From Candidatus Latescibacterota bacterium (GTDB lineage: Bacteria > Latescibacterota > UBA2968 > GCA-2709665), in NCBI GenBank assembly GCA_965116875.1, contig OZ220733.1:288001-352000 (forward strand): DNA of 64,000 nucleotides, given 5' to 3'. Positions 8,896 to 43,406 of the stretch are shown in pieces (within the stretch, counting starts at the first letter, position 1; each line of letters opens with the position of its first letter). The notes under the pieces were generated by a model, which worked only from the letters and a program-made list of their open reading frames with translations, was not told where the DNA came from and ran no database searches. The position numbers were made by a program, and so were the translations under genes.

Positions 8896-9026
8896 AAGAG
8901 CCTCCCTGACAGACCGTCGGATACCCTGGCGACGTACGGAATGAGATCAAGATACGCGCGCCCCGCACGATGATCAACGGTTTTGTTTCCGCGCGTCTTG
9001 ACAGCCCGTAGCCCTGCCGATATGGG

Positions 9027-9055
9027 TTGACTTGGGGTGCCGTCCCGCCTATCAT
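9027..9055 (+). promoter_or_regulatory. Putative sigma70 promoter
   Basis: TTGACT-17bp-TATCAT upstream of GGAGG RBS and GTG at 9094. Confidence 0.5.
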
Positions 9056-9093
9056 ATCGCCCATGGATCGCTCAGTCCACGGAGGAGTCAAAC

Positions 9094-14454: not shown

Positions 14455-14509
14455 CCGACCACGCCCGGGCGGAATGCCCGCGTCGGCCCGCTGCAGGAAG
14501 GAGCGAATC

Positions 14510-16870
14510 ATGCCACCGTCCAAAACAGGATCGCCTGCCCGTGCGGTCACGGTCATGATCTACACCCGGTATGAATACCGCAAGGTGTACGCCCGTGTTC
14601 ACCTGCTCGGCGAAACCCATCTCGCCGATGGCGGCAAGGTGGAACTGGTCCTGTACAGCACACGCTCGGGGGATACGCGGGAAACCAGGGTCGTGGGCAA
14701 CATCGGACTCGAGGAAGTCGCCTTCGACACGGGGGACATCCCGTCGGGATGCTGTGACTTCCGCGCGACCTTTATCGACCGGTTCGGCGCCCGCTTCGCA
14801 ACGCGGACGCTTCAGGACAGGTGGCCCGGCGACTTTCCCTGGCTCGGGTCCCGCGCCGGAATCTCGCGCCGGGTACCCGATCCATGGACGCCGCTCAACG
14901 TTACGGAATCCGATAACGGCCTTGAGATTGCCTGTTGGGGAAGAACGTACACCTTTTCAACGACCGCATTCGCCACCCGGGCGACTTCATCCGGCAGCCA
15001 ACTCCTCGCCGGCCCACTGAGGCCGGTTGCCCGCGTAAACGGCAAGAAGGCACGCTGGACGGACGGCCATCTGGAACTGATCTCGGCGGAAAGAGAACAG
15101 GTGGTTTTCCATGTCCGTTTCGAGTCTCCAGCCGGCCTGTCCGTAACGGCCAGGGCCGAAATCGACTTCGACGGAATGGCGCGAATCGACTGGTCCGTCA
15201 CCGCCGACAGGATCCTGCGCCTCGACGCGCTCTGGCTTGAACTGCCCGTTCGCGGCAAACACTCCGGATACCTGTACCACTTTCCCGGAAGCTGGGGCGG
15301 AGTCCGAAACGTCGGCGCGCTGTCGCAGAACCGTCTCAAGATGGGGTTTCGCCCGTACGTCTGGCTGGGGGACGAGGAACGCGGTATCGCATTGTTTTCG
15401 GAATCGGACGCGGGCTTCCACAACCGTAACCCGCGGAAGGTCACAGAAATCGTCCGTCGAAAGAACCGGGTGCGGCTGCGTATCCACTGCGTCTCGACCC
15501 CGATCAAACTCCTTCCGGGCAGCAGGGAGGGCGGGCAATTCACGGGTTTCGGAACCGAGGACGCCAAACCGTTGAGGCCCGGCGGCGTCGTTACCGATGA
15601 ACTGCGATACACGTTCGGATTTCAGGCCACGCCGGTCAAGCCCGTCGTGGAGGACGCCTGGGACCAGCGCGTATTCTGCATCGGCCAATCCACCACCGGC
15701 TTCAGTCCACGATTGAACGTGTCCGACGATCTCCTTGACAGGTGCGTGGACTCCGGTGTCCGCGCCGTTGTCCTCTTCGAACACTGGGCGGACGCGGAAG
15801 CGTACACCCGCACGCCCCACGCCGACGAAGTCCGGAAGATCGTCAGGGCCTGCAAGGACCGCGGACTTCAGATCCTGCTCTATTTCGGCTTTCTCATCTC
15901 GGACGTCATCGACGAGTGGCAGGCCATCGGCAAAGACGCGCTCATTCTGCCCAAGGGCGGGTATCCCGTCTTCCACTACCAGCCACAGCCCGAACAGTCC
16001 GCCTGGCGGGTTTGTCTGAACAGTCCGTGGCAGGACCTGCTCACCGACGGCATCGCACGGGTTATGGATGAATTCGACGTCGACGGGGTCTACCTGGACG
16101 GGACGGAATATCCATTCGGCTGCTGCAACACGGAACACGGTTGCGGACATACAAGGTCCGACGGCAGCATCGCCCAGACCTTTCCCATTTTCAGCGCGCG
16201 CTCGGCGATGCGCCGCATCTACGAAATCGTAAAATCCCGCAGGAACAACGGCCACGTCAACGTGCATAACTCCACGTGCATGACCATGCCCACCCTGGGA
16301 TGGGCGACCGGGTACTGGGACGGAGAGCAATTCCAGGGGGTCGGCAGCGGCGTGGACGTTTCCCGGCTGTTGCCACTGGACGCCTTCCGCGCCGAATTCA
16401 TGGGCAGGCAGTGGGGGGTTCCCGCCGAATTCCTCCACGCGGGCGCCGCCTACACCTACGAACAGGCGTGGGCGTTTACGCTCCTGCACGACGTTCCCGT
16501 CCGACCGCACAATGCGGACGATGATCTGGACCTTGCCGCCAGGGTATGGCGCGCGATGGACGCGTTCGACCGCAGGAACGCCGAATGGTTACCCTATTGG
16601 CGAAACCGCCGATTTGTAAGCGTTTCTCCAAAGAACGCCTGCGCAAGCATCTATCGACACCCGGAAAACGGCGTTCTGGCCGTTGTTTCCAATATGAACG
16701 GCAAACGCAAGAACGTCACGGTAAAGTTAAACGTGAAGAAGCTTGGGCTCGGGACTGCCCCGAATGCGGAGGACATTCTCAAAAACAACGCCGTCCCGGT
16801 CAGGGACGGCGTATTGGAGTTTTCTCTTTCCAGTCTGGAGTGGAAACTCATCCACGTCCGCAATCGTTGA
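14510..16870 (+). CDS. DUF6067-like / putative glycoside hydrolase domain protein
   Basis: VPDPWTPL, WLGDEERG, FQATPVKP, DGVYLDG (TIM-barrel GH-like), DGEQ, LLHDV, WLPYWRN; RBS AAGGAG before ATG 14510. Confidence 0.65.
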   Translation: MPPSKTGSPARAVTVMIYTRYEYRKVYARVHLLGETHLADGGKVELVLYSTRSGDTRETRVVGNIGLEEVAFDTGDIPSGCCDFRATFIDRFGARFATRTLQDRWPGDFPWLGSRAGISRRVPDPWTPLNVTESDNGLEIACWGRTYTFSTTAFATRATSSGSQLLAGPLRPVARVNGKKARWTDGHLELISAEREQVVFHVRFESPAGLSVTARAEIDFDGMARIDWSVTADRILRLDALWLELPVRGKHSGYLYHFPGSWGGVRNVGALSQNRLKMGFRPYVWLGDEERGIALFSESDAGFHNRNPRKVTEIVRRKNRVRLRIHCVSTPIKLLPGSREGGQFTGFGTEDAKPLRPGGVVTDELRYTFGFQATPVKPVVEDAWDQRVFCIGQSTTGFSPRLNVSDDLLDRCVDSGVRAVVLFEHWADAEAYTRTPHADEVRKIVRACKDRGLQILLYFGFLISDVIDEWQAIGKDALILPKGGYPVFHYQPQPEQSAWRVCLNSPWQDLLTDGIARVMDEFDVDGVYLDGTEYPFGCCNTEHGCGHTRSDGSIAQTFPIFSARSAMRRIYEIVKSRRNNGHVNVHNSTCMTMPTLGWATGYWDGEQFQGVGSGVDVSRLLPLDAFRAEFMGRQWGVPAEFLHAGAAYTYEQAWAFTLLHDVPVRPHNADDDLDLAARVWRAMDAFDRRNAEWLPYWRNRRFVSVSPKNACASIYRHPENGVLAVVSNMNGKRKNVTVKLNVKKLGLGTAPNAEDILKNNAVPVRDGVLEFSLSSLEWKLIHVRNR

Positions 16871-28649: not shown

Positions 28650-29945
28650 CTACCCGAGGGTAAGCGCCGCATCGATCAATCTCTTTCCTGCTTCCCACGT
28701 CATCGGCGCGGGCAGATCGGAATTGAACATGAAAGCGGAACGGACCTCGTAACCTCCCCCATCCCATCCCGCCTTCGACGGGAAATAGCCGGCATGCACG
28801 TTCGACTGATTTACGATAAACAAACGATCGTCGGGCCAGCGACGCCTGAGTTCGAGTCCCCACGAACCGAACAGCTGTCCTGGAAAACACGCCAGGTAGA
28901 CATCCCCGATCCGAAACCCCTGCACCTCCAGCTGCACCGCGTTGGGTACCGCGTCACCGCCCGCCCGCATCGCCAGTTGATCCCGGGCCCAGCCGGCCTG
29001 GTACGAATCAGGTCCGGCGCGCGCCAACTGTTTCTTCAGGTCCGCGTCTGTCGGCAGTGTATCCAGCGGACACGTGCAACAAAGCCGCTGCGCGTCGAGC
29101 CGGGAGTCGTCTGTCTGATTGATGTCCACTGCCAGTCTCCGCACTGAACCTGCCAACCCGCCGCCGACCTTACTGACCTCAGCAAAGTTCTGCTCCGGTC
29201 GGTAGGGTCCCACGTCGCCCAGGCAACCGTTGAAAAAAGCAGCCGTTCCGCCCCACGCTTCTTCCAGTTCCTTACAGACCACACCGGGAAAGTCAGGCGA
29301 CCAATGGAGATTGGTCCCGGTCAGGATGGTCGGATGGCAGCCGTAGTTCACCCACGCGGCCACGGCGCGCCCGTCCTCACCCGAAAAGCGCACCAGACCG
29401 AGCATCGAATCGATCGGTTGACCGTCCTTGCGCCGGTTGTGGTGAAATCCGGATTCCCGCGTCTGCGCGAAACCGACCGTCACCGGCTGCAGGTTTTCTG
29501 ATGCTCTGATCACAGCATCGACGATCCGTTCCTTCAGGTCCGCCATATACGACGGGTCGGGTGCGTTGTCGCGGAACCGGGTGGTAACCGGTCCCGAGTG
29601 GGTGTGTGTTGTCGCAACGAGAATTCCGTCGGTTGCAATTCCTGTCCGTTCCCGGATCGCATCCCTTATCCGTTCCGTCGTGTCTTCGCTGAATCCAACC
29701 GTGTCCACGACGACGAGCGCGACCCTCATCGCTCCCTGTTCGCACACAAAGGCCCTCGCCCACAGCGGAAGATGGACACCGACGGCCGGGCTCGCGCGAC
29801 CAGCGTACCCGGCCATGGACAGTCCGATCGGCGGCGTCACATCGACTTTCGAGGCGCCCATCCGCAGCTTGTGCGGCATGTCGTCATCGGGGAGTCGCAA
29901 TTGATCCGTTGCAGCGGCTTTCACAGGATTATCCTTGACAGGCAT
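28650..29945 (-). CDS. Neutral/alkaline ceramidase N-terminal-domain-like protein
   Basis: DVTPPIGLSMAGY, THTHSGP, HNRR, NYGCHPT, SPDFPG, GCLGDV, GGYE; true start may be 29879. Confidence 0.82.
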   Translation of the reverse strand: MPVKDNPVKAAATDQLRLPDDDMPHKLRMGASKVDVTPPIGLSMAGYAGRASPAVGVHLPLWARAFVCEQGAMRVALVVVDTVGFSEDTTERIRDAIRERTGIATDGILVATTHTHSGPVTTRFRDNAPDPSYMADLKERIVDAVIRASENLQPVTVGFAQTRESGFHHNRRKDGQPIDSMLGLVRFSGEDGRAVAAWVNYGCHPTILTGTNLHWSPDFPGVVCKELEEAWGGTAAFFNGCLGDVGPYRPEQNFAEVSKVGGGLAGSVRRLAVDINQTDDSRLDAQRLCCTCPLDTLPTDADLKKQLARAGPDSYQAGWARDQLAMRAGGDAVPNAVQLEVQGFRIGDVYLACFPGQLFGSWGLELRRRWPDDRLFIVNQSNVHAGYFPSKAGWDGGGYEVRSAFMFNSDLPAPMTWEAGKRLIDAALTLG

Positions 29946-31120: not shown

Positions 31121-32188
31121 TCAGAATGCTCTGTCTACGAGAAAACTGCACATCTCCCGCATCGTTTCCCGGGCGTCGGAGGCAGGAATCTCGTTCAGAT
31201 GCGACTCCGCGTCCGCCGCCCACGCCCGACACGCGTCTTCCGCCCGTTCGATTGAACCATAGTGTTCCATCAGTGCGATCGTCCTTTCCACCTCGTCCGT
31301 CCCCGTCCGGGACCGGTCCCGATTCAGGATTTCCCGCACCCATCCCTGCTCATCCGGCGAACATCTGTGGAACAGATCGATCACCATCAGGGTCCGTTTT
31401 CCCTCCGCGATGTCTCCGCCGCGTTCCTTTCCGTAGCCTCCGGAGGTGGTCGCCGGGGCCTGATGAGCATCTTCGGCGCGAACCGTCAGATTCAGCAGAT
31501 CGTCCTTGATTTGAAACGCCACCGCCATTCGCTCGCCGAACGCGCCCACTGCCTGTCTGCAATCCGGGGATGCGCCCGCGACGATCGCACCCGCGGTACA
31601 TGGACCCCTCCCGCTGTACCAGCCCGTTTTCAGGCGCAGCATTTCCAGAAAAACCTCTACTTCCGGGACCTCGCCCGACTCGATCCAGCCGATGTCGTAC
31701 GCCTGTCCTTCAAACGTGCGCTGAGCGCCGTAGAGCATCTCCTGAATCAGATCAAGCGCCACGGCGTCGCCGAGAATCTCCCGGTTGCTGGCAAGTATCT
31801 CGAACACCTTCGAATGCAGCGCGTCGCCTGCATTGACGCTTAGCGGAACACCATGAAGATGGTGCAGACATGGCTTGCCTCTGCGCATTTCCGAACCGTC
31901 TTCGATGTCGTCGTGAACAAGCGCGAAAGACTGGAACATCTCAAACGCAGCCGCCGTACGCAACGCCTTCTCCACCGCGCCGCCCAATCCCTCACATGCC
32001 AGCAGCACAAGTGCGGAACGAAACCGTTTTCCGCCTCGAATCGGGTAATCCCGCATCGGTTCGTACAGGTATCCGAATGGCTCGGCCCGAGGCAGAAACC
32101 TGAAAAGCTCCGCATCGATGAGGGGTACAAAGGACTCGAGATAAGACTTCAGGCGATCGTTCACCGTCAGGTCCCTCGCGCTCTTCAC
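31121..32188 (-). CDS. Polyprenyl diphosphate synthase (short-chain, GGPP synthase-like)
   Basis: GGKRFR, FARM FALVHDDIEDGSEMRRG, GQAYD, KT, SARM FQIKDDLLN, GDIAEGKRT. Confidence 0.92.
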   Translation of the reverse strand: MKSARDLTVNDRLKSYLESFVPLIDAELFRFLPRAEPFGYLYEPMRDYPIRGGKRFRSALVLLACEGLGGAVEKALRTAAAFEMFQSFALVHDDIEDGSEMRRGKPCLHHLHGVPLSVNAGDALHSKVFEILASNREILGDAVALDLIQEMLYGAQRTFEGQAYDIGWIESGEVPEVEVFLEMLRLKTGWYSGRGPCTAGAIVAGASPDCRQAVGAFGERMAVAFQIKDDLLNLTVRAEDAHQAPATTSGGYGKERGGDIAEGKRTLMVIDLFHRCSPDEQGWVREILNRDRSRTGTDEVERTIALMEHYGSIERAEDACRAWAADAESHLNEIPASDARETMREMCSFLVDRAF

Positions 32189-32469: not shown

Positions 32470-33420
32470 TCAGAGCGCCGTGTGCAAGCAGCGATAGGCA
32501 TCGAATACGATCCCCAGATCCCGTCTGGCTTTCGAATAGTTCGAATACGGCTCGAGGCTCCGGTCTTCCAGGCAGCGCAGAAAGTCCCGCGACATCTCCC
32601 GATACCCCATCAGATCCGAAATCCCCGGAAAGTACATTCGGACGCCTCGAGGTCCCTTGTGGAGTACATACAGGCCATTGCTCTCAAAGACGATCTGTCC
32701 GCGCGTTCCATGAATCCGGGAGTGCTGAAAGACGCCGTTCGTGCGGCTGTTCGTGTTCCACGAATACCTTAATTCAGCCGTCACGTTTCCGGGATAGGTC
32801 AATTCAACAACCGACGTCCGCTCCGGGTCTCCGTCGCGACGTCCTGGAAACCGTCCAACGACGCGTTCCGGCGCACACTCGAACATCGCGGAAATCAGCG
32901 CGACAAAATGGATACCCCCTTCGAGCAACGCCCCGTACTTGCGTTTCCAGCCGGCCGCCGTCTGCGTGAACATCTTCTTCACGTGGATCGACCTGATGTC
33001 TCCAATCCATTGCCGTGCGGTCAATGTCCTGATTCTCTCGAGCAATGGCTTGTAGTAGTAGTTTTCGGCCACCATCAACAGCGCTTCCGGTTGCGAAGCC
33101 ACCGCGGCGCCGACCGCTTCCACCTCCTCCGGATTTACGCACATCGGTTTTTCGACCATCACGTGCTTGCCCGCCGTGAGTGCGCGTATCACCTGGTCCT
33201 TGTGGAACTCGGGCGGGGATGCAATGACCACCGCGTCGATAACGGGAGATGCCAGCGCATCCTCCACGCGCGGGAAGCTGCCGCTGCCCCGAAACTCACT
33301 GTTGAAACGCCGGGCGCTCTGTTCGGATCGACTGCAGAAAAAGAGCTCGGCTGCGCCCGATAGATTCTTCGCGTGCAGGCGGGCGATGGTCCCGCAGCCC
33401 ACCAGACAGATTTTTTTCAT
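32470..33420 (-). CDS. Gfo/Idh/MocA family oxidoreductase
   Basis: LVGCGTIA, GKHVMVEKP, AENYYY, GALLEGGIHFV. Confidence 0.9.
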   Translation of the reverse strand: MKKICLVGCGTIARLHAKNLSGAAELFFCSRSEQSARRFNSEFRGSGSFPRVEDALASPVIDAVVIASPPEFHKDQVIRALTAGKHVMVEKPMCVNPEEVEAVGAAVASQPEALLMVAENYYYKPLLERIRTLTARQWIGDIRSIHVKKMFTQTAAGWKRKYGALLEGGIHFVALISAMFECAPERVVGRFPGRRDGDPERTSVVELTYPGNVTAELRYSWNTNSRTNGVFQHSRIHGTRGQIVFESNGLYVLHKGPRGVRMYFPGISDLMGYREMSRDFLRCLEDRSLEPYSNYSKARRDLGIVFDAYRCLHTAL

Positions 33421-33479: not shown

Positions 33480-34976
33480 CTATCCATGTTCCGCGTGAAT
33501 GACGTCCGCAACGCGTAACGCGTTGGCTGCGATCGTAAGGCTCGGATTGACCCCTCCCGAAGTGGGCATAAAACTGCCGTCGAGTACGAACAGATTGTCG
33601 ATGCCGCGAAACCTGCAGGACTCATCCAGAACGCTTTCCCGGGCGAGGTTTCCGAAACGCAGGGACCCCACCGCGTGAGAAAACGTCTCCAGGTTGTAAA
33701 TGCGGTGATACAGTCCGCCTGCCTGCTTCAAAACGCGCCTCGCCCTGTCTGTCAGATATTTCCTTCGGAGGCGGTCCCGTTCCGAATATCGATGAACGAC
33801 GCCGGTAACCGCGACTCCGTAGTCGTCCAGTCGAGAGGTCAGATGCACCCGGTTTTCATATTGGGGTTCGTCCTCCGCAATACAAAGCAGATTCTGAAGA
33901 TAACGCGCCATAAAGGCGGTCAGATTCCCGTATCCGAAGGGCGCGAAGTGCTTCAGCACCTCCGGCGCGGGGGTGTAGATGTCCTGAATGGTTCCCACCG
34001 ATGTCCCCAATCGGTCCCTCAGGTCTTCGTAGAAATCCGTAAAGCACAATTGCTTGTGAAAAATGCGGTCGGGATTGGTCGCAAAGGGAAAGAGTCCGGT
34101 CACCACGGCGTTGCAGTGCCGCATCAAAAAGCGACCGATCAGGCGGTGATTGTCGAGTCGATCCAGACCGGAACGCAACAGAATGGCCGGGCTCTGCAGT
34201 GCCCCGGCGCTGAGAATCACAATCTTCGCGCTGAAATCGACCGCCCGGTTTGATGCTCCGTCCAGACACCGGACCCGTACGACCCTGCCGTTACGGGTTT
34301 CCAGCTGCAGGACGATTATCCCGGGCATGACTGCCAGGTCGAATGTCTGTGCCTTTGCCAGAAGTGTCTTGGCCACGTCGTTCTTGGCTTCGATGCGGCA
34401 TGGAAATCCGTCGCAGGTGGAACACCGGATGCAGACCGGCCGGTCTTTGTTCGTGAAATTCAGCGCCAGCGGAATCTTGAAGGGCCGGTGCCCGAGCGTC
34501 TTCGCGGCCTCGTAGATCCGCTTCGCCGGGGGCGTGAGTTCAATCCCTCCGAAACGATATTTCCCGGATCTCGGCGGCTCGTGCATATCCGCCCCCGCCT
34601 GACCATGCACCTCCAGGAGATGCTCCGCCTTCGTATAATATGGCTCCATTGCCGCGTAATCGACCGGCCAGTTGGAGAAATCCTTCTCGCGCAATCGCAG
34701 GGACGCCCCGCCGTAAAATACCGACATGCCGCCGACCGCTTCGTTCGGAAAGACGGTCTGAAGGCCCCCCTCGCCTTCTACCTCCATCGGCGAACGGCTT
34801 CTGTACCGCTGATCGATCAGGATCCCGCGCGGGTCCCAGTCCAGCGAATCCCGCTTCACCCACCCGCCTCGTTCGAGCAGAAGCGTCCGAAAACCCGCCC
34901 GGCTGAGCGCAAACGCCGCAGCGCCGCCGCCGAGACCCGAACCAATCACGATGGCTTCATAGGGTCGTGAGCTCAT
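33480..34976 (-). CDS. GMC family oxidoreductase
   Basis: VIGSGLGG, LLLERG, VGGMSVFYGG, CIRCSTCDGFPC, SHAVGSLRFG, PTSGGVNPSLTI; start ATG 34976. Confidence 0.92.
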   Translation of the reverse strand: MSSRPYEAIVIGSGLGGGAAAFALSRAGFRTLLLERGGWVKRDSLDWDPRGILIDQRYRSRSPMEVEGEGGLQTVFPNEAVGGMSVFYGGASLRLREKDFSNWPVDYAAMEPYYTKAEHLLEVHGQAGADMHEPPRSGKYRFGGIELTPPAKRIYEAAKTLGHRPFKIPLALNFTNKDRPVCIRCSTCDGFPCRIEAKNDVAKTLLAKAQTFDLAVMPGIIVLQLETRNGRVVRVRCLDGASNRAVDFSAKIVILSAGALQSPAILLRSGLDRLDNHRLIGRFLMRHCNAVVTGLFPFATNPDRIFHKQLCFTDFYEDLRDRLGTSVGTIQDIYTPAPEVLKHFAPFGYGNLTAFMARYLQNLLCIAEDEPQYENRVHLTSRLDDYGVAVTGVVHRYSERDRLRRKYLTDRARRVLKQAGGLYHRIYNLETFSHAVGSLRFGNLARESVLDESCRFRGIDNLFVLDGSFMPTSGGVNPSLTIAANALRVADVIHAEHG

Positions 34977-35757
34977 AGACGTACAGAACCGCCAATCCAA
35001 CGATAATGATCCACGCCATATAGTGGTATTTCTCGCGTGTCTCAATGTATCGTGTTATACGCGGCAGGTCCGGCCTGAACTTGCCGGACATCGTGCGTTG
35101 CACGTAGGTCTTGTAGTACTCGACCAGGAATCGTTCCAGTCCGCCGTTCATGAAGATCAGGTAGCCGATTGGTACCGGCGACGTCGGATCGTTCGAGTAA
35201 AAGAAAACGGGTGAACAGATGGCGAGCACGATGGACGAACGGAAGAATTTCAGGGGCGCGAATCCCTCGAAGGGAGCGTCTTTGTATGCGCCTCCAAGAG
35301 AAACCAGCATTCCCGTGGCAAAAGCGACGGCCGCGAATACCGCGAAGTCGACGATTCGCAATGAGAGAAACAGAATGGAGAATACCGCCGAAACCAGTAC
35401 AACGCCCGAGAAGAGGCGCAACGGCTCGCAGGTCACCGGCCGGCCGAAGAAAGTGATTCTGGATGGCACCGCGTATTTCGACTGATCCTCGGATCTGAAG
35501 AATCCCTTGTACAGCTCCGCGAGGAACCGCTCCAGGCCCATGACGACGAAGAAAACCTGAAACAGGTTCAATTGGCGGAAATTCCCGGAAAAAAAGGGCA
35601 GCCAATAGAGCGCGCAGAAAATCACGGCATGAAAATAGACGCTGCGGGGAAACGTGCGGCGTTTCAGGCCCTCAAAGGGGGAGTCCTTGAATGCGCCCCA
35701 CAACGAGGTGTACAGACCTGAAACCAGACTGACGAAAAACGGGATCCAAAAACCCAT
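34957..35757 (-). CDS. Hypothetical integral membrane protein with internal duplication
   Basis: Hydrophobic helices; repeated WGAFKDSPFEG..FPRS / GGAYKDAPFEG..FFRS and GLERFLAELYK / GLERFLVEYYK. Confidence 0.75.
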   Translation of the reverse strand: MGFWIPFFVSLVSGLYTSLWGAFKDSPFEGLKRRTFPRSVYFHAVIFCALYWLPFFSGNFRQLNLFQVFFVVMGLERFLAELYKGFFRSEDQSKYAVPSRITFFGRPVTCEPLRLFSGVVLVSAVFSILFLSLRIVDFAVFAAVAFATGMLVSLGGAYKDAPFEGFAPLKFFRSSIVLAICSPVFFYSNDPTSPVPIGYLIFMNGGLERFLVEYYKTYVQRTMSGKFRPDLPRITRYIETREKYHYMAWIIIVGLAVLYVYELTTL

Positions 35758-35955: not shown

Positions 35956-38403
35956 TTACGGCCGCGCACTTCCTGCTTTGACCGGTCCCCCCCTCCGCTT
36001 GAATCGATCCAGAATCTCGAGGACGGCGGGCAGGACAACCACGGCCGCGACAAAACAGGTCAGAAGGCCGATTACGGCCAGCTTTCCAATGGAGTTCAAG
36101 CCGGGATGTCTGGCGGTGATCAAGCCGAAAAAGCCGATCATCGTCGTCATCATCGATACAAGCATCGCGCCGCCGGTATTCCGGAGGATCACCGGTATCG
36201 AGTCCGCGCCCTCTTCCTGAAACCTGTGGAACAGATGCACACCGTTATCGATGCCCATCCCGATGATGGTGGGCAAGGCCACCATATTGTAGAAATTCAA
36301 TTTCATCCCGGTCAGGAACATGCTTCCACACATCCAGATGGCGCCGCAAATCAGCGGCAACATGACCAGCAGCCCGTTTCGGATGCTTCTGAAATCGATG
36401 AAAACGATCAGGAAGACGACCAGAAGCGTGATGCCGATCGCCCACCTGCTGTCACGGATCATCAATTTAAGCATATCCGCGAAAATGATACTGGAACTGG
36501 ACGAATAAAACGCCCTTCCGGATTCGGTCGTGATCAGGTGCGTGTCGTTCGCGAACTCGATCGCCTGTCGTCCGTCTCGAAGTTGCACGCTGGGATAGAT
36601 GAAGGCGAAATGGGCACGGCTGCCGTCGACGGTTGCGAATTTTCGCAGGATGTTCTTCGGAAGGTCGTCCACATGCAGTTTCTTCACGTCCATCAATTCC
36701 CGCAACTCGTCCACTCGCTCCTTCTGCTCGCCTTTCAGCAATTTCGCGCCTTCGCCGTCCACCAGTTCGCGCAGTTCGGCGATCAACGCCAGTTTCTCGT
36801 CCTCCTGCCGGGGAAGGAAGGACCAGAGCGTCCTGATCTTGTCAATTGTCGGCGTCGGATCGTCGGAATCGATCTTGCCGTTTACAGTATCGACGACTTC
36901 ATCCAGCTCTTCCTTGCTGTCGGCCAGTACGACGCTTGGTGAATGCGACTCGCCCCTGAACTTCGAGAGCGAATTGATCTTGTCTTTCACCTCTTTCGAA
37001 GTGGCGAGATTGGAACGCAGGTTGGTGAAATCATACTCAAACTGGATCCGGTCGAGATTGAAGGCCAGGTAGACCGTGCCGGCGATTGCAACCACGAACA
37101 CAACCGGCGCCAGGGGAAACCGGCCCTTTCCGGAGCCCCGGTGGTGTCCAAGCACATACCGCATTCGCACCAGCTTCAGGCGTTCGTCGGCAAGAACGAG
37201 AAAGGCCGGAAGTACCACGGTCATTGACACCAGAGACATGACGATCCCCGTGCCAACGATAAAACCGAATTCCGAAAACCCCTTGAAATCCGTAATCGTA
37301 AGCGAATAGAACGCCATCGAGGTGGTCAGCGCGGCCGTCAGGATGGCCTGGCCCGTCTGGATCAGCATGGTCTCGACCGATTGCCTGACATCCATATTCG
37401 CCATTCGATCTTCCAGGTACCGGGAGAACATGTGAATGCCGAAATCGATTCCCAGACCGAACAGGATCACGAACAGGAATCCGGTCATCGTGTTCAGATT
37501 GCCGATCACCCAATAGGTGATGGCAAAAGCCCACGTCAGCCCCATGACGAGCGGAATGGCAACAAAAAAAGCAGCCAGTGGCTGCCTGAAATAGAACGTG
37601 AGAAGCAGGACGACACCGATGAATCCGAATATGACCGTCGACTTGATATCGTCCAGAATGACGTTATATTCATCGATCTTGTTCTTGTACGAACCTCCAA
37701 TGGAGACGATCATCCCCGGATGGTAGGATCCCGGATCGAGCGTCTGAACGGCGTTCCGGATGACGCCGTACATCTCTTTGGCGAATCCTATATTGCTCAC
37801 CGTTCCCGATGCCATCACCTCAACCGCAACGATCGTACTGTCCGCGTTGGTATAGTATACTTCGTGCCCGCGGTCTCCATTCTCCTTGTACTTCGACTCG
37901 ATATCCGAAAAATCCAGCGGCTCGTCGTCTTCGCCGTCGTCCAGACTGAAGAACAACGGGGATAACTTCAGCTTCTCCTGCCGGATACGATCGTCAATTC
38001 GCAGCTGGATGTCCTCGAGGTCATCGAGATCCATATACAGCAGCGCGTTTTCCTTGAAAAAATCCACTTCACGCTTGAAATCAACGTAATTTACGTATTT
38101 CCAGTACTTTTCGGCCTTCAGTTCAACAAACAGGTCTTCCACGAATCTTCTGGACGCCGAGAAATCCCCGCATTCCGCCAGAACAACCAGGCTTCCCACG
38201 CCGCCCAGCCGCGCCTTGATATCTTCGAGCGTCTTCACGCTGGGATAGTGTTCCGGGATCAGGGCCGCGATATCCGTCTCGAGGCGCTGGATCAGACGAT
38301 AGACAAAAAAACTGCAAAAAATCGAAAGAAGAGTCGAAACAATAACAATAACGGCGTGTCGTCGATAGACAAAGTCCGCCAGAAACCTCAACCTATCCTG
38401 CAT
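35956..38403 (-). CDS. MMPL/RND family lipid transporter (HpnN-like)
   Basis: 815 aa; two halves with GLGIDFGIH and GMGIDNGVH; AALTTSMAF / SMMTTMIGF; FKGFSEFG / HPGLNSIG. Confidence 0.9.
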   Translation of the reverse strand: MQDRLRFLADFVYRRHAVIVIVSTLLSIFCSFFVYRLIQRLETDIAALIPEHYPSVKTLEDIKARLGGVGSLVVLAECGDFSASRRFVEDLFVELKAEKYWKYVNYVDFKREVDFFKENALLYMDLDDLEDIQLRIDDRIRQEKLKLSPLFFSLDDGEDDEPLDFSDIESKYKENGDRGHEVYYTNADSTIVAVEVMASGTVSNIGFAKEMYGVIRNAVQTLDPGSYHPGMIVSIGGSYKNKIDEYNVILDDIKSTVIFGFIGVVLLLTFYFRQPLAAFFVAIPLVMGLTWAFAITYWVIGNLNTMTGFLFVILFGLGIDFGIHMFSRYLEDRMANMDVRQSVETMLIQTGQAILTAALTTSMAFYSLTITDFKGFSEFGFIVGTGIVMSLVSMTVVLPAFLVLADERLKLVRMRYVLGHHRGSGKGRFPLAPVVFVVAIAGTVYLAFNLDRIQFEYDFTNLRSNLATSKEVKDKINSLSKFRGESHSPSVVLADSKEELDEVVDTVNGKIDSDDPTPTIDKIRTLWSFLPRQEDEKLALIAELRELVDGEGAKLLKGEQKERVDELRELMDVKKLHVDDLPKNILRKFATVDGSRAHFAFIYPSVQLRDGRQAIEFANDTHLITTESGRAFYSSSSSIIFADMLKLMIRDSRWAIGITLLVVFLIVFIDFRSIRNGLLVMLPLICGAIWMCGSMFLTGMKLNFYNMVALPTIIGMGIDNGVHLFHRFQEEGADSIPVILRNTGGAMLVSMMTTMIGFFGLITARHPGLNSIGKLAVIGLLTCFVAAVVVLPAVLEILDRFKRRGGPVKAGSARP

Positions 38404-38406
38404 GAA

Positions 38407-39030
38407 TCATTCCTTCCCTTTCCCGTCTGCCTCGTCCTCATTCAGCTTGTCTCTGAGTTTCTTTACAAGACCCTCGTACGACGACTTGCGGATCTCCTTG
38501 TAGAACTGAGATCGATTGTTTCTGGCAACGCTCAGATCGTCAATCACCATATCGTACACCAGCCACTTTCCATTGACCGGGTGGAGCTTGTAGTCGATAT
38601 CGCTCTGCTCATCCTTATAGTGTACGATTGTCCGGACAACACCTTCCGTACTGTCGACCTCCGAGCCCACGTACTCAATTCTCTCGGATTTCGTATACAG
38701 CTTCGGATCCGCGTAATTCCTGACGATCAGACGCCGGCACAGGTCTGCAAACTCAGCCTTCTCCGCCTCATTGCGCCGCTGCCAGTGGCGGCCCAATGCG
38801 ACCTTGCCGAACCGGTGAAAATCGAACATGCCTTCCACGATCGCCTTCAGCTGTTCCCGCTCTTCCGCTGTTTCTCCCGCAGTTTCCGAATTGACGATTG
38901 CCTTTATCGAACTGTCCCGTTCCTTCATCGACCGGAGCAACTGTTCAGCCTGGTCCGCACCCTGTGCGAAGGCCCCGCCCAAAAACCCAACAAGGGCATA
39001 AAACACAATAATATACGACAATATTCTCAT
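38407..39030 (-). CDS. MlaC/Ttg2D (HpnM-like) periplasmic lipid-binding protein
   Basis: Signal peptide; FDFHRFGKVALGRHW, IDYKL, WLVYDMVIDDLSVARNNRSQF. Confidence 0.88.
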   Translation of the reverse strand: MRILSYIIVFYALVGFLGGAFAQGADQAEQLLRSMKERDSSIKAIVNSETAGETAEEREQLKAIVEGMFDFHRFGKVALGRHWQRRNEAEKAEFADLCRRLIVRNYADPKLYTKSERIEYVGSEVDSTEGVVRTIVHYKDEQSDIDYKLHPVNGKWLVYDMVIDDLSVARNNRSQFYKEIRKSSYEGLVKKLRDKLNEDEADGKGKE

Positions 39031-39145
39031 TTTATCCAGTTCCTTTTTCGGCCGGAAACAAAACGACCCGGCACAGGAACACCACTCCGGCCGGTTCGAT
39101 ACCCGTTCGCTGCTTCCGATAATTTCCCTGCCAGCATCTTGCTCT

Positions 39146-40585
39146 TCAATCCGCCTTTCCCGAAACCAGCTTCCCGGCTTCCGTGGCGCGGGTCCGCATG
39201 ATGTGCCCGATGAATCCGAAAACGGCGCTCACGACAAGGCCGGACCCGAGCACGAAAATCCAGAAAATCGCCTCAAGACAGTTCAAAACCGCCAGAACAC
39301 AGAACAGTGCGGCGAAAAAGTCCCGGCGACACGCGAATTTCAGTCCGCAGTAGACGCGGTGCAGATATCCGCGGCGTTCTTCCGGCACTTCGCTTGAGAA
39401 ACCCATGTTGAAGCTTACGATACTGCCCGATCCGCTCTGCTTCAGGTAGACGCAAATGAGCAGGACCGCAAGCACATTCAACGCAAGGGCGATGAAACCC
39501 AGCGCGATGACAACTGGTTCCGTTGTCAGTCTGTACATCCCGAAAATGACGCCTGAGAAGAATCCAAGATAGGATACGTTGTCCGCGACCGTATCCAACC
39601 ATTCCCCAAAGCGGGATCCCGCGAACTTCAGCGTGGCGACCTCGCCGTCGCAGCCGTCGACAACAGACGCAAACTGAAAGAGCAGCCCTCCCAGCGCGAC
39701 GTAGAAATGGCTCCCCTCCGCCATCGCCCAGCCTGCCAGAAACGTGATCATCATTGCGGCGATTGAAATCTGGTTGGGCGTCACCGGCGTTTTTACCAGG
39801 AATCCGGAAATCCAGGAGGAAATCTTCCTGTTGAAATGGCGCGACACAATCCCGTCAGTCGGCTTGCCCAACTGACCGAACAATGCCGTTTCTCCCTGGC
39901 GCAATGCTTCCGGCGTATCCACGTCCTGCCAGAACATGCCATCGATGTCAACCGCCCTCATGTTTCCTCGCGACGCGATGATCCGGACGCCGCCCGAGAG
40001 CGTTTCGTCGCCGCCGGCAGCGGCAAGCTCAAGGCCGTCGAACAGCGCCTGACTGCAGAGAAAGATACCCGTATCCACCGCGTCGTATTCTCTCAGCGCC
40101 TTGCCGATCTTCCGGATCCGGTCGCCTTCGAGGACGACTTTGGTCGCGTCATCCAGATCCTGTATCCGGTCCAGCCGCGTGTCTATGCACAACGCCGACT
40201 CGCCCGCGCCCAGCAACAGACCCCGCATGAGGGTGATTACCTTCGGCTCGAACAGATGGTCCGCCATCAACAGAAGAAACGTGCCATCCACGTAATCACG
40301 CGCTTTCAGAACGGAAAGGCCATTTCCCCGCTTCCAATCCGGGTTTTCAATCCAATCTATATTCACGTCGATCTGCGGGTCATTTGCGATGGCTTCGCGT
40401 ATTTCATCGCCCCGATAGCCAATGACGATGGCAAACTCCGAGATCCCCGCTCTTCTTGCGGTCAGAATGGCCCTCTTCAACAACCCCACGCCGGCGACTT
40501 TGACAAGCGGCTTCGGTCTGCCACATCCTTGTCCGTTCAGGCGGCTGCCCATACCGGCAGCAATAATCACCGCCTTTTTTACCAT
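39146..40585 (-). CDS. Bifunctional nucleotidyltransferase / CDP-alcohol phosphotransferase (IPCT/DIPPS-like)
   Basis: N-terminal AVIIAAGMGSRL..PKPL, MADH, DATKV, DTGIF, WQDVDTPE; C-terminal DGIVSRHFNRKIS, TPNQIS, DGCDGEVA..GEWLDTVAD; start ATG 40585. Confidence 0.9.
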   Translation of the reverse strand: MVKKAVIIAAGMGSRLNGQGCGRPKPLVKVAGVGLLKRAILTARRAGISEFAIVIGYRGDEIREAIANDPQIDVNIDWIENPDWKRGNGLSVLKARDYVDGTFLLLMADHLFEPKVITLMRGLLLGAGESALCIDTRLDRIQDLDDATKVVLEGDRIRKIGKALREYDAVDTGIFLCSQALFDGLELAAAGGDETLSGGVRIIASRGNMRAVDIDGMFWQDVDTPEALRQGETALFGQLGKPTDGIVSRHFNRKISSWISGFLVKTPVTPNQISIAAMMITFLAGWAMAEGSHFYVALGGLLFQFASVVDGCDGEVATLKFAGSRFGEWLDTVADNVSYLGFFSGVIFGMYRLTTEPVVIALGFIALALNVLAVLLICVYLKQSGSGSIVSFNMGFSSEVPEERRGYLHRVYCGLKFACRRDFFAALFCVLAVLNCLEAIFWIFVLGSGLVVSAVFGFIGHIMRTRATEAGKLVSGKAD

Positions 40586-41943
40586 GACACCCTCCCGGTA
40601 CCCTCCAGTATCGAAGTTCCCGTCGCGCGCTGCAGTGCCATCCAGGCGAGATTGAACTCCAATACAGCCTGGTAGTACTTGGCGCGAATTATGCCGTACT
40701 CTTTCACTGCATCGACCATTTCTCCCGCCTCCTCCAGCCCCGCATTGAACCCGTCTCTCGCCGACACAAACCACCGCCGGGTTGCGCGGCGGGCCTTTCG
40801 AGCCGCCTCGATATTGGCTTTCGCTTCGATGAGCGAAAGATAGGCGCTCTCGATCTCAAGCCTGGCGCCCTGCGCCGCCAGCTGAGCCTGATAGCCGAGT
40901 TTTTCGTAGGACAGACGGGCTTCTTTCACCTTTGCTCTTGTACTTGCGAATGACAATGACTGCCGGAAGCCCAGCACGGCGCCCAACTCAGTCACGTTGA
41001 ACTCGTCTTTCAGAAACGGGTTCCGCTGGCGGTCCCTGTTCGGCGCAAAACCGTATTTGAACCGGCCGGCCAGGAAAACCTGTGGAAACAGGTCTGTTCG
41101 GACGGCGCGCACCTGCGCCGACCGCACCCGCAGAACTTCCCGAAGCTGCCCCAGATCCGGGCGCCCCTCGACGCGCGACAGATAAGTTTCCAGTGGACGG
41201 ATCTGAACGTCAACCGGCCTCAGAATTCCTTCCGCCAGAACAAGGGAATCGGACTCAGAAAGCCCAATGAGAGTCCGGAGCGCCGAACGTGCGATCCCCT
41301 GACTCTTGACAACCCTGTTTGCATTCTCCTCCACGTCGAAAACAAACCTGTCAATACGGTGCAGATCGGTATACGTAAAATCCCCCGTATCGGCATCCAG
41401 CTTTTCGACGATCGTTCGCCGCGCCCTGTCGATTTCCCCACGGGACTCGAGCGCCAGTTCCCGAAGCTGATTCGCCAAAAGCAGCAGATAGTAGGCCCTC
41501 GCGACCTCTTGCTCCAGGTCGAATCGGGATCTGGTCAGACCGGCGCGCTGCGCTTCGATACCCCCGGATGCAGCTTCCACCGCGGCATTGAGCTTTCCAA
41601 AGGTGAAGAGTGGCTGAACCAGCGACAATTCGGTCCTTGTAAACACACTCATCCGCCGCCAGTTGCTCTCCCCGGTAAGCGCGTCGCCTCGAGCCTCAGG
41701 CGATGGCCCGACCGTCCACGTGAAATCCAGCCCTGGAAGAAATCGCGCGGCATGCACCTGCCGGAGCCTGTTCTCCGCGATGTGCAGATCCGCCCTGGCG
41801 GCCTGAATGGATGGACTCGACGCAAATGCCATCCGAACGCACCCGGCGAGATCGTATTGGGGCTGTCCGGATTCGGAATCGCACGGACGGATGCCGATCA
41901 CGACAGCGAAGACCATGACAATTGAAGCAGGATACTTTGTCAT
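40579..41943 (-). CDS. TolC family outer membrane efflux protein
   Basis: ARFLP, LVQPLFTFGK, EVARAYY, RPDL, DLFP, two OEP repeats; probable start ATG 41943. Confidence 0.88.
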   Translation of the reverse strand: MTKYPASIVMVFAVVIGIRPCDSESGQPQYDLAGCVRMAFASSPSIQAARADLHIAENRLRQVHAARFLPGLDFTWTVGPSPEARGDALTGESNWRRMSVFTRTELSLVQPLFTFGKLNAAVEAASGGIEAQRAGLTRSRFDLEQEVARAYYLLLLANQLRELALESRGEIDRARRTIVEKLDADTGDFTYTDLHRIDRFVFDVEENANRVVKSQGIARSALRTLIGLSESDSLVLAEGILRPVDVQIRPLETYLSRVEGRPDLGQLREVLRVRSAQVRAVRTDLFPQVFLAGRFKYGFAPNRDRQRNPFLKDEFNVTELGAVLGFRQSLSFASTRAKVKEARLSYEKLGYQAQLAAQGARLEIESAYLSLIEAKANIEAARKARRATRRWFVSARDGFNAGLEEAGEMVDAVKEYGIIRAKYYQAVLEFNLAWMALQRATGTSILEGTGRVSW

Positions 41944-42107
41944 GTGTGAATTTTTACGACACGTGTGGGAAAATTGCAACGCCTCCCCCGTTAACCTCCC
42001 GGACAAACGGCGAATGGATTCAAGCGGAAAAAGCAGAAGGATGTTCGGATATATCAATGCAACCTTCACTCGAAACCTGATTTTCTATACGAAATCAGTA
42101 CATTAAA

Positions 42108-42123
42108 AGCGAAATTCGTGCCA
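42108..42123 (-). promoter_or_regulatory. Putative sigma54 (-24/-12) promoter
   Basis: Minus strand TGGCACGAATTTCGCT: GG-N10-GC with TGGCACG intact, about 165 bp upstream of tolC. Confidence 0.6.
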
Positions 42124-42149
42124 CAAGACTGTGAATCTGCAACACATAC

Positions 42150-43406
42150 TCAGGCACTCAACGCTTCGACGATAATGGTCTGAACACGCCGGGCCACTTC
42201 GACAGCGTCATGCCGTTGCACGGCTGAAACCCGGGCGGCCGAACCCATTCGTCGTCGCAATTCCCTGTTCTCAATCATTTTGATGATGGTATCCGCGAGG
42301 CCGGAGACGTCGTTCGGCTTCACCAGGAATCCATTGTAACCATCCCTGATCAACTCCGGTACACCGCCTGTTGCAGATCCGACCACCGGAGTTCCAAGTG
42401 CCAGAGATTCGATAACGCTTCTGGGACAGGGGTCGGGCGCCACGGATGGTACCAGCGTGACGTCCATGTCTTTCAAATACGGTCGGACGTCCGTCCGGAA
42501 TCCCGTAAACAGAACCCGTCCGGAGTACCGTCCGTTGGCCACTTCGCGACGATAGCGATCCAAAAGGTTCGATGACCGCTGCGGGCACCCGCCTACAACC
42601 ACCAGAACCACGTCGTCACGCTTCGCCAGCACCCGCTTCATTGCCGACAACAGGGTGCCGATCCCCTTCCACTCTACAATTCGTCCGACAAAGCCCAGAA
42701 CCACCTCGTCCGGTCCGATTCGGTACATCCTGCGCACGCACCCCTGAACGGTTTCCGGATTGAAACTGACCAGGTCCGCGCCATTGTACACAACCTGAAC
42801 CTTGTCCTTTGCCGACGGAAAATTGCCTGCGCACGCCTCGGATACCGCGACAATTCTTGCCACGCTGGCAGACCGCGCGAGTTGGTCGAAGAACCAACCT
42901 CTGAAGCTCTTTCCGTAAAGGGTGCGGCAGTGCCAGATGACCGGTGTGCCGCACACCATACCCGCCACGGTGCCCATGAACTTCACCATCATCTGGTTGC
43001 AGTAAATCAGCCCGACGTTTTCCTGGGCGACCACGCGAACCAGATCGAACGTAAACCGTATGCTGTCGATCGCGTTCAGGACCACCGACGCCATTGTGCA
43101 GATGCGGTTCCGGCCCCTGAAGCGCATCTCCGCGAGACGCTCCTTCAACCGGGGTTCGATTCGGTACGGGACGCGTATCTCCTCAAGCCTGCTCTTCAAC
43201 ACCCCTTCGTTGGGCATGACGACCAGGGGCTCCAGCACACCGCGATCGAGATGTTTCAACAGGTAAAACAGACTGTTTCCTGCCCCTCCACGCCCCGTAC
43301 AACCCGTCAGAAAGAGTACCTTGATCTTTCCGGCGCCCTCTTCCGGGCACAAAACTGGCGACGATTCACCTGCCTCGTCGCCCCTTCCAACGAAACGACC
43401 GGTCAT
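42150..43406 (-). CDS. Glycosyltransferase family 4
   Basis: GGAGNSL, VSEA, VVYNGAD, FVGRIVEWKG, FTGFRTDV, PSVAPDPCPRSVIESLALGTPVV. Confidence 0.92.
   Translation of the reverse strand: MTGRFVGRGDEAGESSPVLCPEEGAGKIKVLFLTGCTGRGGAGNSLFYLLKHLDRGVLEPLVVMPNEGVLKSRLEEIRVPYRIEPRLKERLAEMRFRGRNRICTMASVVLNAIDSIRFTFDLVRVVAQENVGLIYCNQMMVKFMGTVAGMVCGTPVIWHCRTLYGKSFRGWFFDQLARSASVARIVAVSEACAGNFPSAKDKVQVVYNGADLVSFNPETVQGCVRRMYRIGPDEVVLGFVGRIVEWKGIGTLLSAMKRVLAKRDDVVLVVVGGCPQRSSNLLDRYRREVANGRYSGRVLFTGFRTDVRPYLKDMDVTLVPSVAPDPCPRSVIESLALGTPVVGSATGGVPELIRDGYNGFLVKPNDVSGLADTIIKMIENRELRRRMGSAARVSAVQRHDAVEVARRVQTIIVEALSA

Follow-up and report, generated by a model that had tools for sequence, protein, structure and literature searches.

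The stretch under study is a 64-kb piece of the genome of a Candidatus Latescibacterota bacterium (contig OZ220733.1, positions 288,001 to 352,000; hereafter the window), and our subject is a group of four adjacent genes within it, which encode a TolC-family protein, a fused enzyme resembling IPCT/DIPPS, an MlaC-family lipid carrier and an MMPL-type transporter. All elements reported for this unit lie on the minus strand, at the following positions of the window:

42108-42123, minus strand: sigma-54-type -24/-12 element, TGGCAC-N5-TCGC with GG-N10-GC spacing (TGGCACGAATTTCGCT)
40579-41943, minus strand: TolC-family gene, 454 amino acids; Pfam OEP (PF02321), 136.1 bits in two stretches
39146-40585, minus strand: fused cytidylyltransferase/CDP-alcohol phosphotransferase, IPCT/DIPPS-like, 479 amino acids
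38407-39030, minus strand: MlaC-family periplasmic lipid carrier, 207 amino acids; PF05494, 115.4 bits
35956-38403, minus strand: HpnN-like MMPL/HAE3 transporter of the RND type, 815 amino acids; PF03176, 139.7 bits
35845-35884, minus strand: terminator-like hairpin with an 11-bp stem and a run of 7 U, about 70 nt past the MMPL stop codon

Operon structure and gene products

The stop codon of tolC and the ATG of the enzyme gene (40585) share seven nucleotides, ATGGTAA, and the gap from the mlaC stop codon to the MMPL start is 3 nt. Both junctions agree with an earlier reading of this DNA made from its letters alone (the sequence-only reading), which had described tolC as overlapping a fused nucleotidyltransferase/CDP-alcohol phosphotransferase gene and an MlaC/HpnM-type carrier gene as lying 3 bp from the MMPL gene. 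Because of these junctions, the sigma-54-type motif upstream and the terminator-like hairpin downstream (fold of -17.3 kcal/mol, z -1.83), the unit looks like a four-gene operon. The tolC start, ATG at 41943, is backed by full-length tblastn alignments. For the enzyme there is a longer GTG-started open reading frame (39146-40774), which has 63 extra residues upstream of the start common to its relatives.

The AlphaFold2 model of the TolC-like protein (mean pLDDT 87.9) has the canonical strand and long-helix pattern of a TolC protomer, with strands at residues 71-113 and 288-327 and long helices at 117-184, 191-226, 332-400 and 406-441; the protein scores below the cut-offs of the subfamilies TIGR01844 and TIGR01845. 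In the enzyme, the Pfam domains NTP_transf_3 and NTP_transferase are followed by CDP-OH_P_transf, so that an N-terminal nucleotidyltransferase (IPCT) domain is present (PF12804 49.2 bits, PF00483 34.6 bits). The MlaC-family protein, whose PF05494 match compares with a gathering score of 26, has a hydrophobic, signal-like N-terminus as read from its sequence and stays below the HpnM equivalog cut-off of NCBIfam (67.3 against 160.1 bits). PF03176 matches the MMPL protein in two stretches, as in a two-repeat transporter of this family. Its NCBIfam matches are TIGR03480 HpnN with 321.5 bits (cut-off 751.85) and NF052374 with 207.9 bits (cut-off 1100), and TIGR00921 HAE3 was matched with 202.3 bits, under the cut-off of 351.9.

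Neither a gene for a membrane-fusion protein, the adaptor of a tripartite efflux pump, nor one for an Mla permease was found in the operon or among the other open reading frames of the window that were scanned. The sequence-only reading had stated that membrane-fusion and MlaFEDB genes are missing; this holds for the frames scanned, but mlaE, mlaF and mlaD are encoded elsewhere in the genome.

Promoter

The element TGGCACGAATTTCGCT sits in a 206-nt gap (41944-42149) behind an upstream glycosyltransferase gene. The pattern TGGCACN5TYGCW has one match in the window; shuffled sequences lead us to expect 0.11, and at least one match occurred in 11 of 100 shuffles. Since the genome-wide frequency of the motif is uninformative, the promoter call rests on conservation: TGGCA[CT]-N4-TTCGC is unchanged in 17 of 17 upstream regions (the window and 16 orthologous loci), and the four spacer bases and the flanks around it vary between lineages. 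Judged from these upstream regions, the conserved motif is a phylogenetic footprint. In the window and the 16 orthologous loci its distance to the end of the extracted stretch, which reached 45 nt into the tolC match, is 218-306 nt, and in loci L028-L034 the motif comes immediately after the terminator-like hairpin of the preceding gene. The GG-N10-GC spacing, the conservation and the rpoN gene found in the genome all agree with a sigma-54 promoter. As for a sigma-54 activator tied to the operon, activators exist elsewhere in the genome, for instance beside the ino1 region and at locus L201, and nothing connects them with the operon.

Conservation of the four-gene unit

The enzyme-family alignment was scanned against species-representative genomes and gave 566 relatives, of which the best 80 loci were kept and their open reading frames searched by profile; the counts of IPCT-family loci in this and the next section refer to these best 80 of 566. 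TolC-like genes were present in 24 of the loci, MlaC in 25 and MMPL in 20. Sixteen loci (L019-L034) have the order TolC-enzyme-MlaC-MMPL, with enzyme identity as low as 57%. All are Latescibacterota-type relatives; most are titled Candidatus Latescibacterota and a few Gemmatimonadota. Insertions between the enzyme gene and mlaC were detected in three of these 16, among them a GT4 glycosyltransferase gene in L030, different from the one upstream of the operon in the window, and a transposase gene in L033. Seven further loci from other lineages (KSB1; metagenome-assembled genomes titled Gemmatimonadota or 'bacterium') combine the enzyme with TolC and MlaC.

In a phylum sample of 151 genomes, a full-length close homologue (E <= 2.6e-128) turned up in every sampled genome of the two nearest families (18 of 18 and 30 of 30); families farther away gave weaker or partial matches only.

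The fused enzyme and its clade

The best NCBIfam match of the enzyme is IPCT/DIPPS, NF041135 (254.8 bits, E 1.5e-75), of which model positions 1-343 of 419 are matched. The A. fulgidus IPCT/DIPPS structure (PDB 4mnd) aligns with enzyme residues 3-416 at E 9e-53, and the N-terminal domain matches the IPCT structure 2xme at E 2.7e-30. The motif DGCDGEVATLKFAGSRFGEWLDTVAD keeps the Asp and Gly residues of the CDP-alcohol signature and has Thr where the signature has Arg; the enzyme reads DGCDGEVATL...GEWLDTVAD, and the complete signature DxxDGxxAR...GxxxDxxxD is therefore not present. Because all four catalytic Asp residues of the signature are kept, we take the enzyme to be active, probably with altered substrate handling.

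How is this replacement distributed in the family? In all 24 TolC/MlaC-linked loci the signature Arg is replaced by K, S, T, V or Q; in the window it is Thr. Arg is retained in every IPCT-type row from non-linked loci (55 Arg rows in total) except L035, which is without TolC/MlaC neighbours and yet has Lys at this position. The Arg-keeping relatives include many loci with a MIPS gene directly upstream. A MIPS neighbour was counted in 21 of the 80 family loci, where most are close homologues of the genome's own ino1 and long-type MIPS was also counted.

A quick maximum-likelihood tree placed the 25 linked rows within one side of 29 rows (SH-aLRT 94). The linked label requires two changes on this tree, and none of 500 label shuffles was as clustered. 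The remaining four rows of that side are three radical-SAM-linked genes and L079, in which MlaC and MMPL adjoin the enzyme. On this tree and by its catalytic signature, the TolC/MlaC-linked enzyme clade is distinct from the MIPS-linked IPCT/DIPPS-type clade. Inositol-1-phosphate would be the substrate, a suggestion supported by the similarity to 2xme, by the MIPS synteny within the family and by the unlinked ino1 of the genome.

Two other arrangements were seen among the relatives. An IPCT-like gene is directly followed by a radical SAM gene of about 320 amino acids in L013, L014 and L015 (about 8391-9389) and in L050:8977-9978; these loci belong to a sister group of the enzyme clade, and among those scanned with Pfam (L013, L014 and L050) a SPASM domain was present in L050. 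In a Methylomirabilota metagenome-assembled genome (L068:69-9401), an MMPL-MlaC pair, a squalene-hopene cyclase gene, MIPS and an Arg-keeping IPCT-like gene are clustered in a 10-kb stretch.

The TolC-like/MlaC module across phyla

Scanning with the TolC-like alignment recovered 536 relatives, detected by a single conserved peptide; 80 of their loci were kept. An MlaC gene adjoins the TolC-like gene in 73 of the 80, across several phyla; five of the seven others are cut by a contig end shortly past the TolC or enzyme gene and two (L141, L165) are full-length. Two kinds of surroundings can be told apart. Twenty-five of the 80 loci are arranged as mlaE-(mlaF)-mlaD-tolC-like-mlaC, with no enzyme there. 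These loci are titled Geobacter, Pelotalea, Desulfuromonadales, Nitrospirota or Nitrospinota and include cultured strains; examples are Nitrospira japonica (L195), Geobacter hydrogenophilus (L160) and Pelotalea chapellei (L174). An IPCT-profile match lies within 8 kb in 50 of the 80, and neither mlaE nor mlaD occurs in any of these 50 fetched stretches. Companions at the latter loci are a second CDP-alcohol transferase, a Wzx-type flippase, a methyltransferase and DUF3047 or an MlaC-DUF3047 fusion. Calditrichaceae also have an MMPL gene immediately ahead of the TolC-like/MlaC module.

This linkage across phyla is new, and the module is broader than the sequence-only reading had seen. The TolC/MlaC pair is not confined to the operon; it proved to be a widespread two-gene module, directly behind mlaE-F-D in the 25 loci just described. 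No description of the TolC-MlaC pair or of this operon was found in the literature searched, in which few subscription journals were covered.

DUF3047, alone or fused behind an MlaC-like domain, was seen in 25 of the 80 TolC-like/MlaC loci (for example L036:14678-15532, L052:9729-10988, L050:10290-11585 and L184:6628-7890). The genome itself has two unlinked DUF3047 genes, at C1:2648496 and C1:4930387.

Predicted contact between MlaC and the TolC-like protein

A complex of MlaC with one TolC-like protomer, predicted from paired 50-row alignments, scored 0.67, and the best of three controls scored 0.00. Among solved complexes 116 of 157 reach that mark, and among mismatched pairs 2 of 215; with custom alignments these counts hold only approximately. 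The runs have at least 96% of contacts in common, and the pLDDT of the partner is at least 83. No solved TolC-MlaC complex is known to us, which makes it unlikely that the prediction passed by reproducing a memorised structure.

The confident contact residues of the TolC-like protein are 186, 240, 242, 385-404 and 420. Its turns at 185-190 and 401-405 (between H3 and H4 and between H7 and H8), to which contact residues 186 and 385-404 map, form the periplasmic tip in the AlphaFold2 model. The predicted interface includes W391, invariant in the subfamily, and F399, nearly invariant, on the TolC side, and F176 and K195 on the MlaC side. The prediction supports a docking of MlaC on the periplasmic tip of the TolC-like protomer. 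In efflux pumps, the periplasmic tip of TolC is the docking region of adaptor proteins.

Gene content elsewhere in the genome

The genome has an ino1 (MIPS) gene, and no lipid genes were found in the neighbourhood of ino1 that was examined. The genes mlaE, an ABC ATPase gene (mlaF) and mlaD lie at about 4.78 Mb of C1. MlaC of the operon is the sole MlaC match in the genome, and MlaA had no match in the genome, which is estimated to be 97.7% complete. The Mla pathway is thus represented by MlaC in the operon and by mlaE, the ATPase gene and mlaD elsewhere. No squalene-hopene cyclase was found in the genome beyond a 25-bit partial match in a 289-amino-acid frame.

Seven other OEP genes were found in the genome, at least five of them within a few kilobases of other RND-type matches. 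These surroundings mark the operon TolC as a specialised paralogue.

Genes of possible relevance to ether lipids are scattered. An IdsA/GGPP-synthase-like prenyl synthase gene lies in the window at 31121-32188 (minus strand), 4 kb downstream of the operon. A PcrB/GGGPS-family gene (132 bits, C1:5064334-5064990, L201:8296-9042) stands alone beside alaS, and the CDP-alcohol transferase near it is of the PgsA type and accompanied by pgpA. Together, the IdsA-like and PcrB/GGGPS genes hint at polyprenyl-glycerol ether lipids. An ether-lipid cluster tied to the operon was rejected, the PcrB/GGGPS gene being a lone one next to alaS and the nearby transferase PgsA-type.

Neighbouring genes in the window

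The genes on both sides of the operon are also on the minus strand:

42150-43406, minus strand: GT4 glycosyltransferase, directly upstream of the promoter; PF00534, 125.5 bits
34957-35757, minus strand: polytopic membrane protein of 266 amino acids, with the internal repeat GAxKDxPFEG ... GLERFL seen twice
33480-35045, minus strand: GMC oxidoreductase, downstream of the gene for the 266-amino-acid protein
32470-33420, minus strand: IolG-like dehydrogenase of the GFO/IDH/MocA type, after the GMC oxidoreductase

We do not claim membership in the unit for the glycosyltransferase; a GT4 gene is conserved at this position in only 7 of 80 loci, those of the closest relatives. The 266-amino-acid protein matched no Pfam or NCBIfam family and fell only into unnamed clusters in the protein atlas. 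Of the 16 four-gene loci, 15 have its gene and that of the GMC oxidoreductase as a pair directly after the operon, and the pair is located past the terminator-like hairpin.

Farther away, an open reading frame of 431 amino acids (28650-29945, minus strand) matches neutral/alkaline ceramidase weakly (66 bits), in the N-terminal part of that enzyme. Heparinase II/III-like, sulfatase and GH123-like genes at 5926-8895 and 12976-16870 suggest sulfated-glycan degradation.

Proposed mechanism and alternative explanations

The gene identities, the operon structure, the conserved promoter motif, the TolC/MlaC linkage across phyla, the clade-specific enzyme variant and the predicted interface that passed its controls are what the data show, and they are the starting points for interpretation. 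We give about even chances to the reading that this is a sigma-54-dependent four-gene operon that couples the synthesis of a special phospholipid to its transport between the membranes. The N-terminal cytoplasmic domain of the fused enzyme would use CTP to activate a polyol phosphate, which is most likely myo-inositol-1-phosphate made by the genome's own MIPS. The membrane domain would then pass the phospho-alcohol part of the CDP-alcohol on to a lipid alcohol of the membrane. With diacylglycerol, dialkylglycerol or a ceramide-like lipid as the possible acceptor, an inositol-phosphate lipid would arise at the inner membrane. The HpnN-like RND protein would pull this lipid out of the inner membrane on the proton gradient, and the MlaC-family protein would ferry it across the periplasm to the TolC-family protein, the presumed outer-membrane end of the route, where it would dock at the periplasmic tip. 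Because mlaEFD is encoded elsewhere in the genome and there is only one MlaC, an ABC (Mla) feeder is as plausible as an RND feeder. The inositol substrate, the lipid acceptor, the role of MMPL and the direction of transport are thus those parts of the scheme that we infer.

The sequence-only reading had likewise proposed an inositol-lipid synthesis and export unit. Part of that picture has gained support: the invariance of the -24/-12 motif in all 17 upstream regions, the four-gene order in 16 of 80 loci, the presence of both ino1 and rpoN in the genome, the distinct enzyme clade and the carrier:TolC interface (0.67 against 0.00) are in line with it. The product, the order of the steps and the direction of transport keep the conditional form given above.

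Several points weigh against the coupled synthesis and transport. Genome-wide, the relaxed promoter pattern is barely above what base composition gives (27 matches against 21.3 expected), and no sigma-54 activator gene was found among the window open reading frames. The ino1 gene is unlinked to the operon. The score of the enzyme, 254.8 bits, is far under the NF041135 equivalog cut-off of 580, and since the signature Arg is Thr, the activity of the Arg-less enzyme may be altered; the donor alcohol and the lipid acceptor are putative assignments. MMPL is not obligatory, given that the seven loci with enzyme, TolC and MlaC are without it in the stretch fetched, and the complex model holds one TolC protomer, not a trimer. 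The genome has a single MlaC and encodes mlaEFD elsewhere; for this reason, and in view of the 25 of 80 enzyme-free mlaEFD loci, the TolC-like/MlaC pair may serve bulk phospholipid traffic.

This last point leads to the strongest rival, in which the TolC-like protein and MlaC are the outer half of a general Mla pathway with the MlaFED encoded elsewhere, the TolC-like protein replaces the missing MlaA, no dedicated lipid is exported, and the enzyme and MMPL genes are co-transcribed with them for regulatory reasons only. We regard it as unlikely on balance, if well worth keeping in mind, and it and the coupled synthesis and transport are not mutually exclusive. The location of the sole MlaC gene in the operon, the mlaE, ATPase and mlaD genes on C1, the missing MlaA match and the mlaE-(mlaF)-mlaD-tolC-like-mlaC order in the 25 loci all speak for it, as does the tolC homologue that follows mlaEFD in Negativicutes according to the part of PMC10665443 that deals with this cluster. 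However, twice as many of the 80 TolC-subfamily loci have an IPCT-profile match within 8 kb instead, none with mlaE or mlaD in the stretch fetched. The linked enzymes group on one side of the tree and depart from the usual catalytic signature, translation of the enzyme gene is coupled to that of tolC, and a sigma-54 promoter would be unusual for a housekeeping pathway. If the envelope genes were unrelated neighbours, the enzyme could be a true IPCT/DIPPS that makes soluble di-myo-inositol phosphate. Its top database matches, NF041135 and 4mnd, bear this name, MIPS is present in the genome, and IPCT/DIPPS genes of mesophilic marine archaea have been interpreted as serving solute synthesis. Against this stand the score under the equivalog cut-off, the loss of Arg in exactly the TolC/MlaC-linked clade while the MIPS-adjacent clade keeps it, and the linkage to lipid-carrier genes across phyla. 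Di-myo-inositol phosphate is, moreover, chiefly known from (hyper)thermophiles, and we hold this explanation to be quite improbable.

Solvent or drug efflux would also use OEP and RND proteins, both being families of efflux-pump parts, which here would expel small hydrophobic molecules with an MlaC/Ttg2D-type protein as tolerance factor; members of the MlaC family were originally named toluene-tolerance proteins, as noted in a passage of PMC12324291. This is improbable as well, because the operon and the scanned frames of the window contain no membrane-fusion adaptor, the RND protein is of the HpnN/HAE3 type and not AcrB (ACR_tran 18 bits, under the cut-off), the TolC subfamily accompanies MlaC and Mla or lipid-headgroup genes rather than adaptors, and other OEP genes of the genome adjoin other RND genes. 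A hopanoid transporter made of HpnN and HpnM, as in Burkholderia or Rhodopseudomonas, is brought to mind by the top NCBIfam names (HpnN 321.5 bits, HpnM 67.3 bits) and by L068, where an MMPL-MlaC pair stands beside a squalene-hopene cyclase gene and a MIPS-IPCT pair. The scores are, however, far under their cut-offs of 751.85 and 160.1, and we removed this reading, which we find extremely improbable, as no squalene-hopene cyclase was found in the genome beyond the 25-bit fragment.

Wider reading and significance

The coupled synthesis and transport of an inositol-phosphate lipid may be one case of something more general. We tentatively suggest, as a possibility that falls short of an even chance, that TolC/MlaC is a widespread and so far unrecognised outer-membrane terminus of lipid transport in MlaA-less bacteria, fed by MlaFED or by an RND pump, which has been recruited to the clade of Arg-less enzymes. 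At the tip of TolC, the carrier would take over the docking site of the membrane-fusion adaptor. The feed would come either from MlaFED, in Desulfuromonadales and Nitrospirota, or from an RND pump resembling HpnN. In Latescibacterota, KSB1, Calditrichaceae and related lineages, the module would have been recruited to deliver a new inositol-phosphate lipid to the outer membrane. Such a lipid might have an ether or isoprenoid backbone, because a PcrB-like gene and an IdsA-like prenyl synthase gene are present.

The delivery of lipids to the outer membrane is an open problem outside a few model Proteobacteria, and MlaA is missing from most phyla according to the part of PMC10665443 devoted to its distribution. 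If this wider reading is true, the TolC scaffold would be put to a new use, in a TolC-family protein that accepts an MlaC carrier. Such a protein would offer a testable answer for MlaA-less lineages, including the culturable Geobacter, Pelotalea and Nitrospira with mlaEFD-tolC-like-mlaC. Lipid synthesis of the CDP-inositol type, known from very few bacteria, would be extended to a whole order of uncultured Latescibacterota.

Comparison with known systems

The enzyme shares with A. fulgidus IPCT/DIPPS (4mnd; NF041135) the two-domain architecture, the four Asp and both Gly residues. It differs in having Thr for Arg and no match beyond model position 343, and its genomic company consists of lipid-transport genes, not MIPS. 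Compared by description, the proposed transfer of a CDP-inositol head group to a lipid alcohol resembles CDP-inositol lipid synthesis in Rhodothermus marinus and Bacteroides. Rhodothermus marinus is said to have a CDP-inositol-dependent dialkylether glycerophosphoinositol synthase. In its passages on inositol lipids, PMC9246714 proposes the CDP-inositol route for Bacteroidetes and cites it for Rhodothermus. The Bacteroides vulgatus-type cluster described in those passages has separate NTP-transferase, phosphotransferase and HAD genes beside MIPS, and the description, unlike our operon, includes no TolC, MlaC or MMPL genes (PMC9246714). An LPG_synthase_TM gene recurs beside the Bacteroides inositol-lipid clusters of the same passages (PMC9246714) and here, where such a gene of the AglD/HpnL type adjoins the enzyme or the promoter in two lineages (L030:5471-6418, L079:9302-10357).

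The genome paper on Latescibacterota mentions only myo-inositol synthesis in the part that concerns this subject (PMC12993501).

The sequence-only reading had considered an RND protein with a carrier and TolC and without an adaptor to be an uncharacterised arrangement. The RND and MlaC-like part of it has a precedent, since a passage of PMC12324291 already proposes such a pair without adaptor for hopanoids (the HpnN-HpnM-HpnS model). That model likewise places an HpnN-type RND protein and an MlaC-family carrier beside lipid biosynthesis genes, but it has an MlaA-like lipoprotein partner and hopanoid cargo and is, in the same passage, itself only predicted (PMC12324291). Our operon has instead a TolC-family partner, no MlaA, no cyclase and an adjoining head-group transferase.

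In Negativicutes, where MlaC is missing, the section of PMC10665443 on these clusters describes mlaEFD-tolC-tamB, with the Veillonella tolC homologue directly after mlaEFD. Veillonella is there without MlaC and has a long MlaD instead, and its TolC homologue is treated in that section as an outer-membrane marker, with no lipid-transport role assigned (PMC10665443).

Pumps of the AcrAB-TolC type also combine an RND protein with a TolC-family protein, and the predicted MlaC contact lies at the TolC periplasmic tip; unlike them, the operon is without an adaptor gene, its RND protein is HAE3/HpnN-like, and a lipid carrier stands in the adaptor's place. Like the Mla pathway (MlaFEDB-MlaC-MlaA/OmpC), the operon has an MlaC carrier, and in 25 of the 80 loci members of the TolC-like subfamily come after mlaEFD. 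MlaC of E. coli docks on MlaA, whereas here it is predicted to dock on the TolC-like protein, and in the lineage of the operon the adjacent TolC-like and MlaC genes are detached from mlaEFD.

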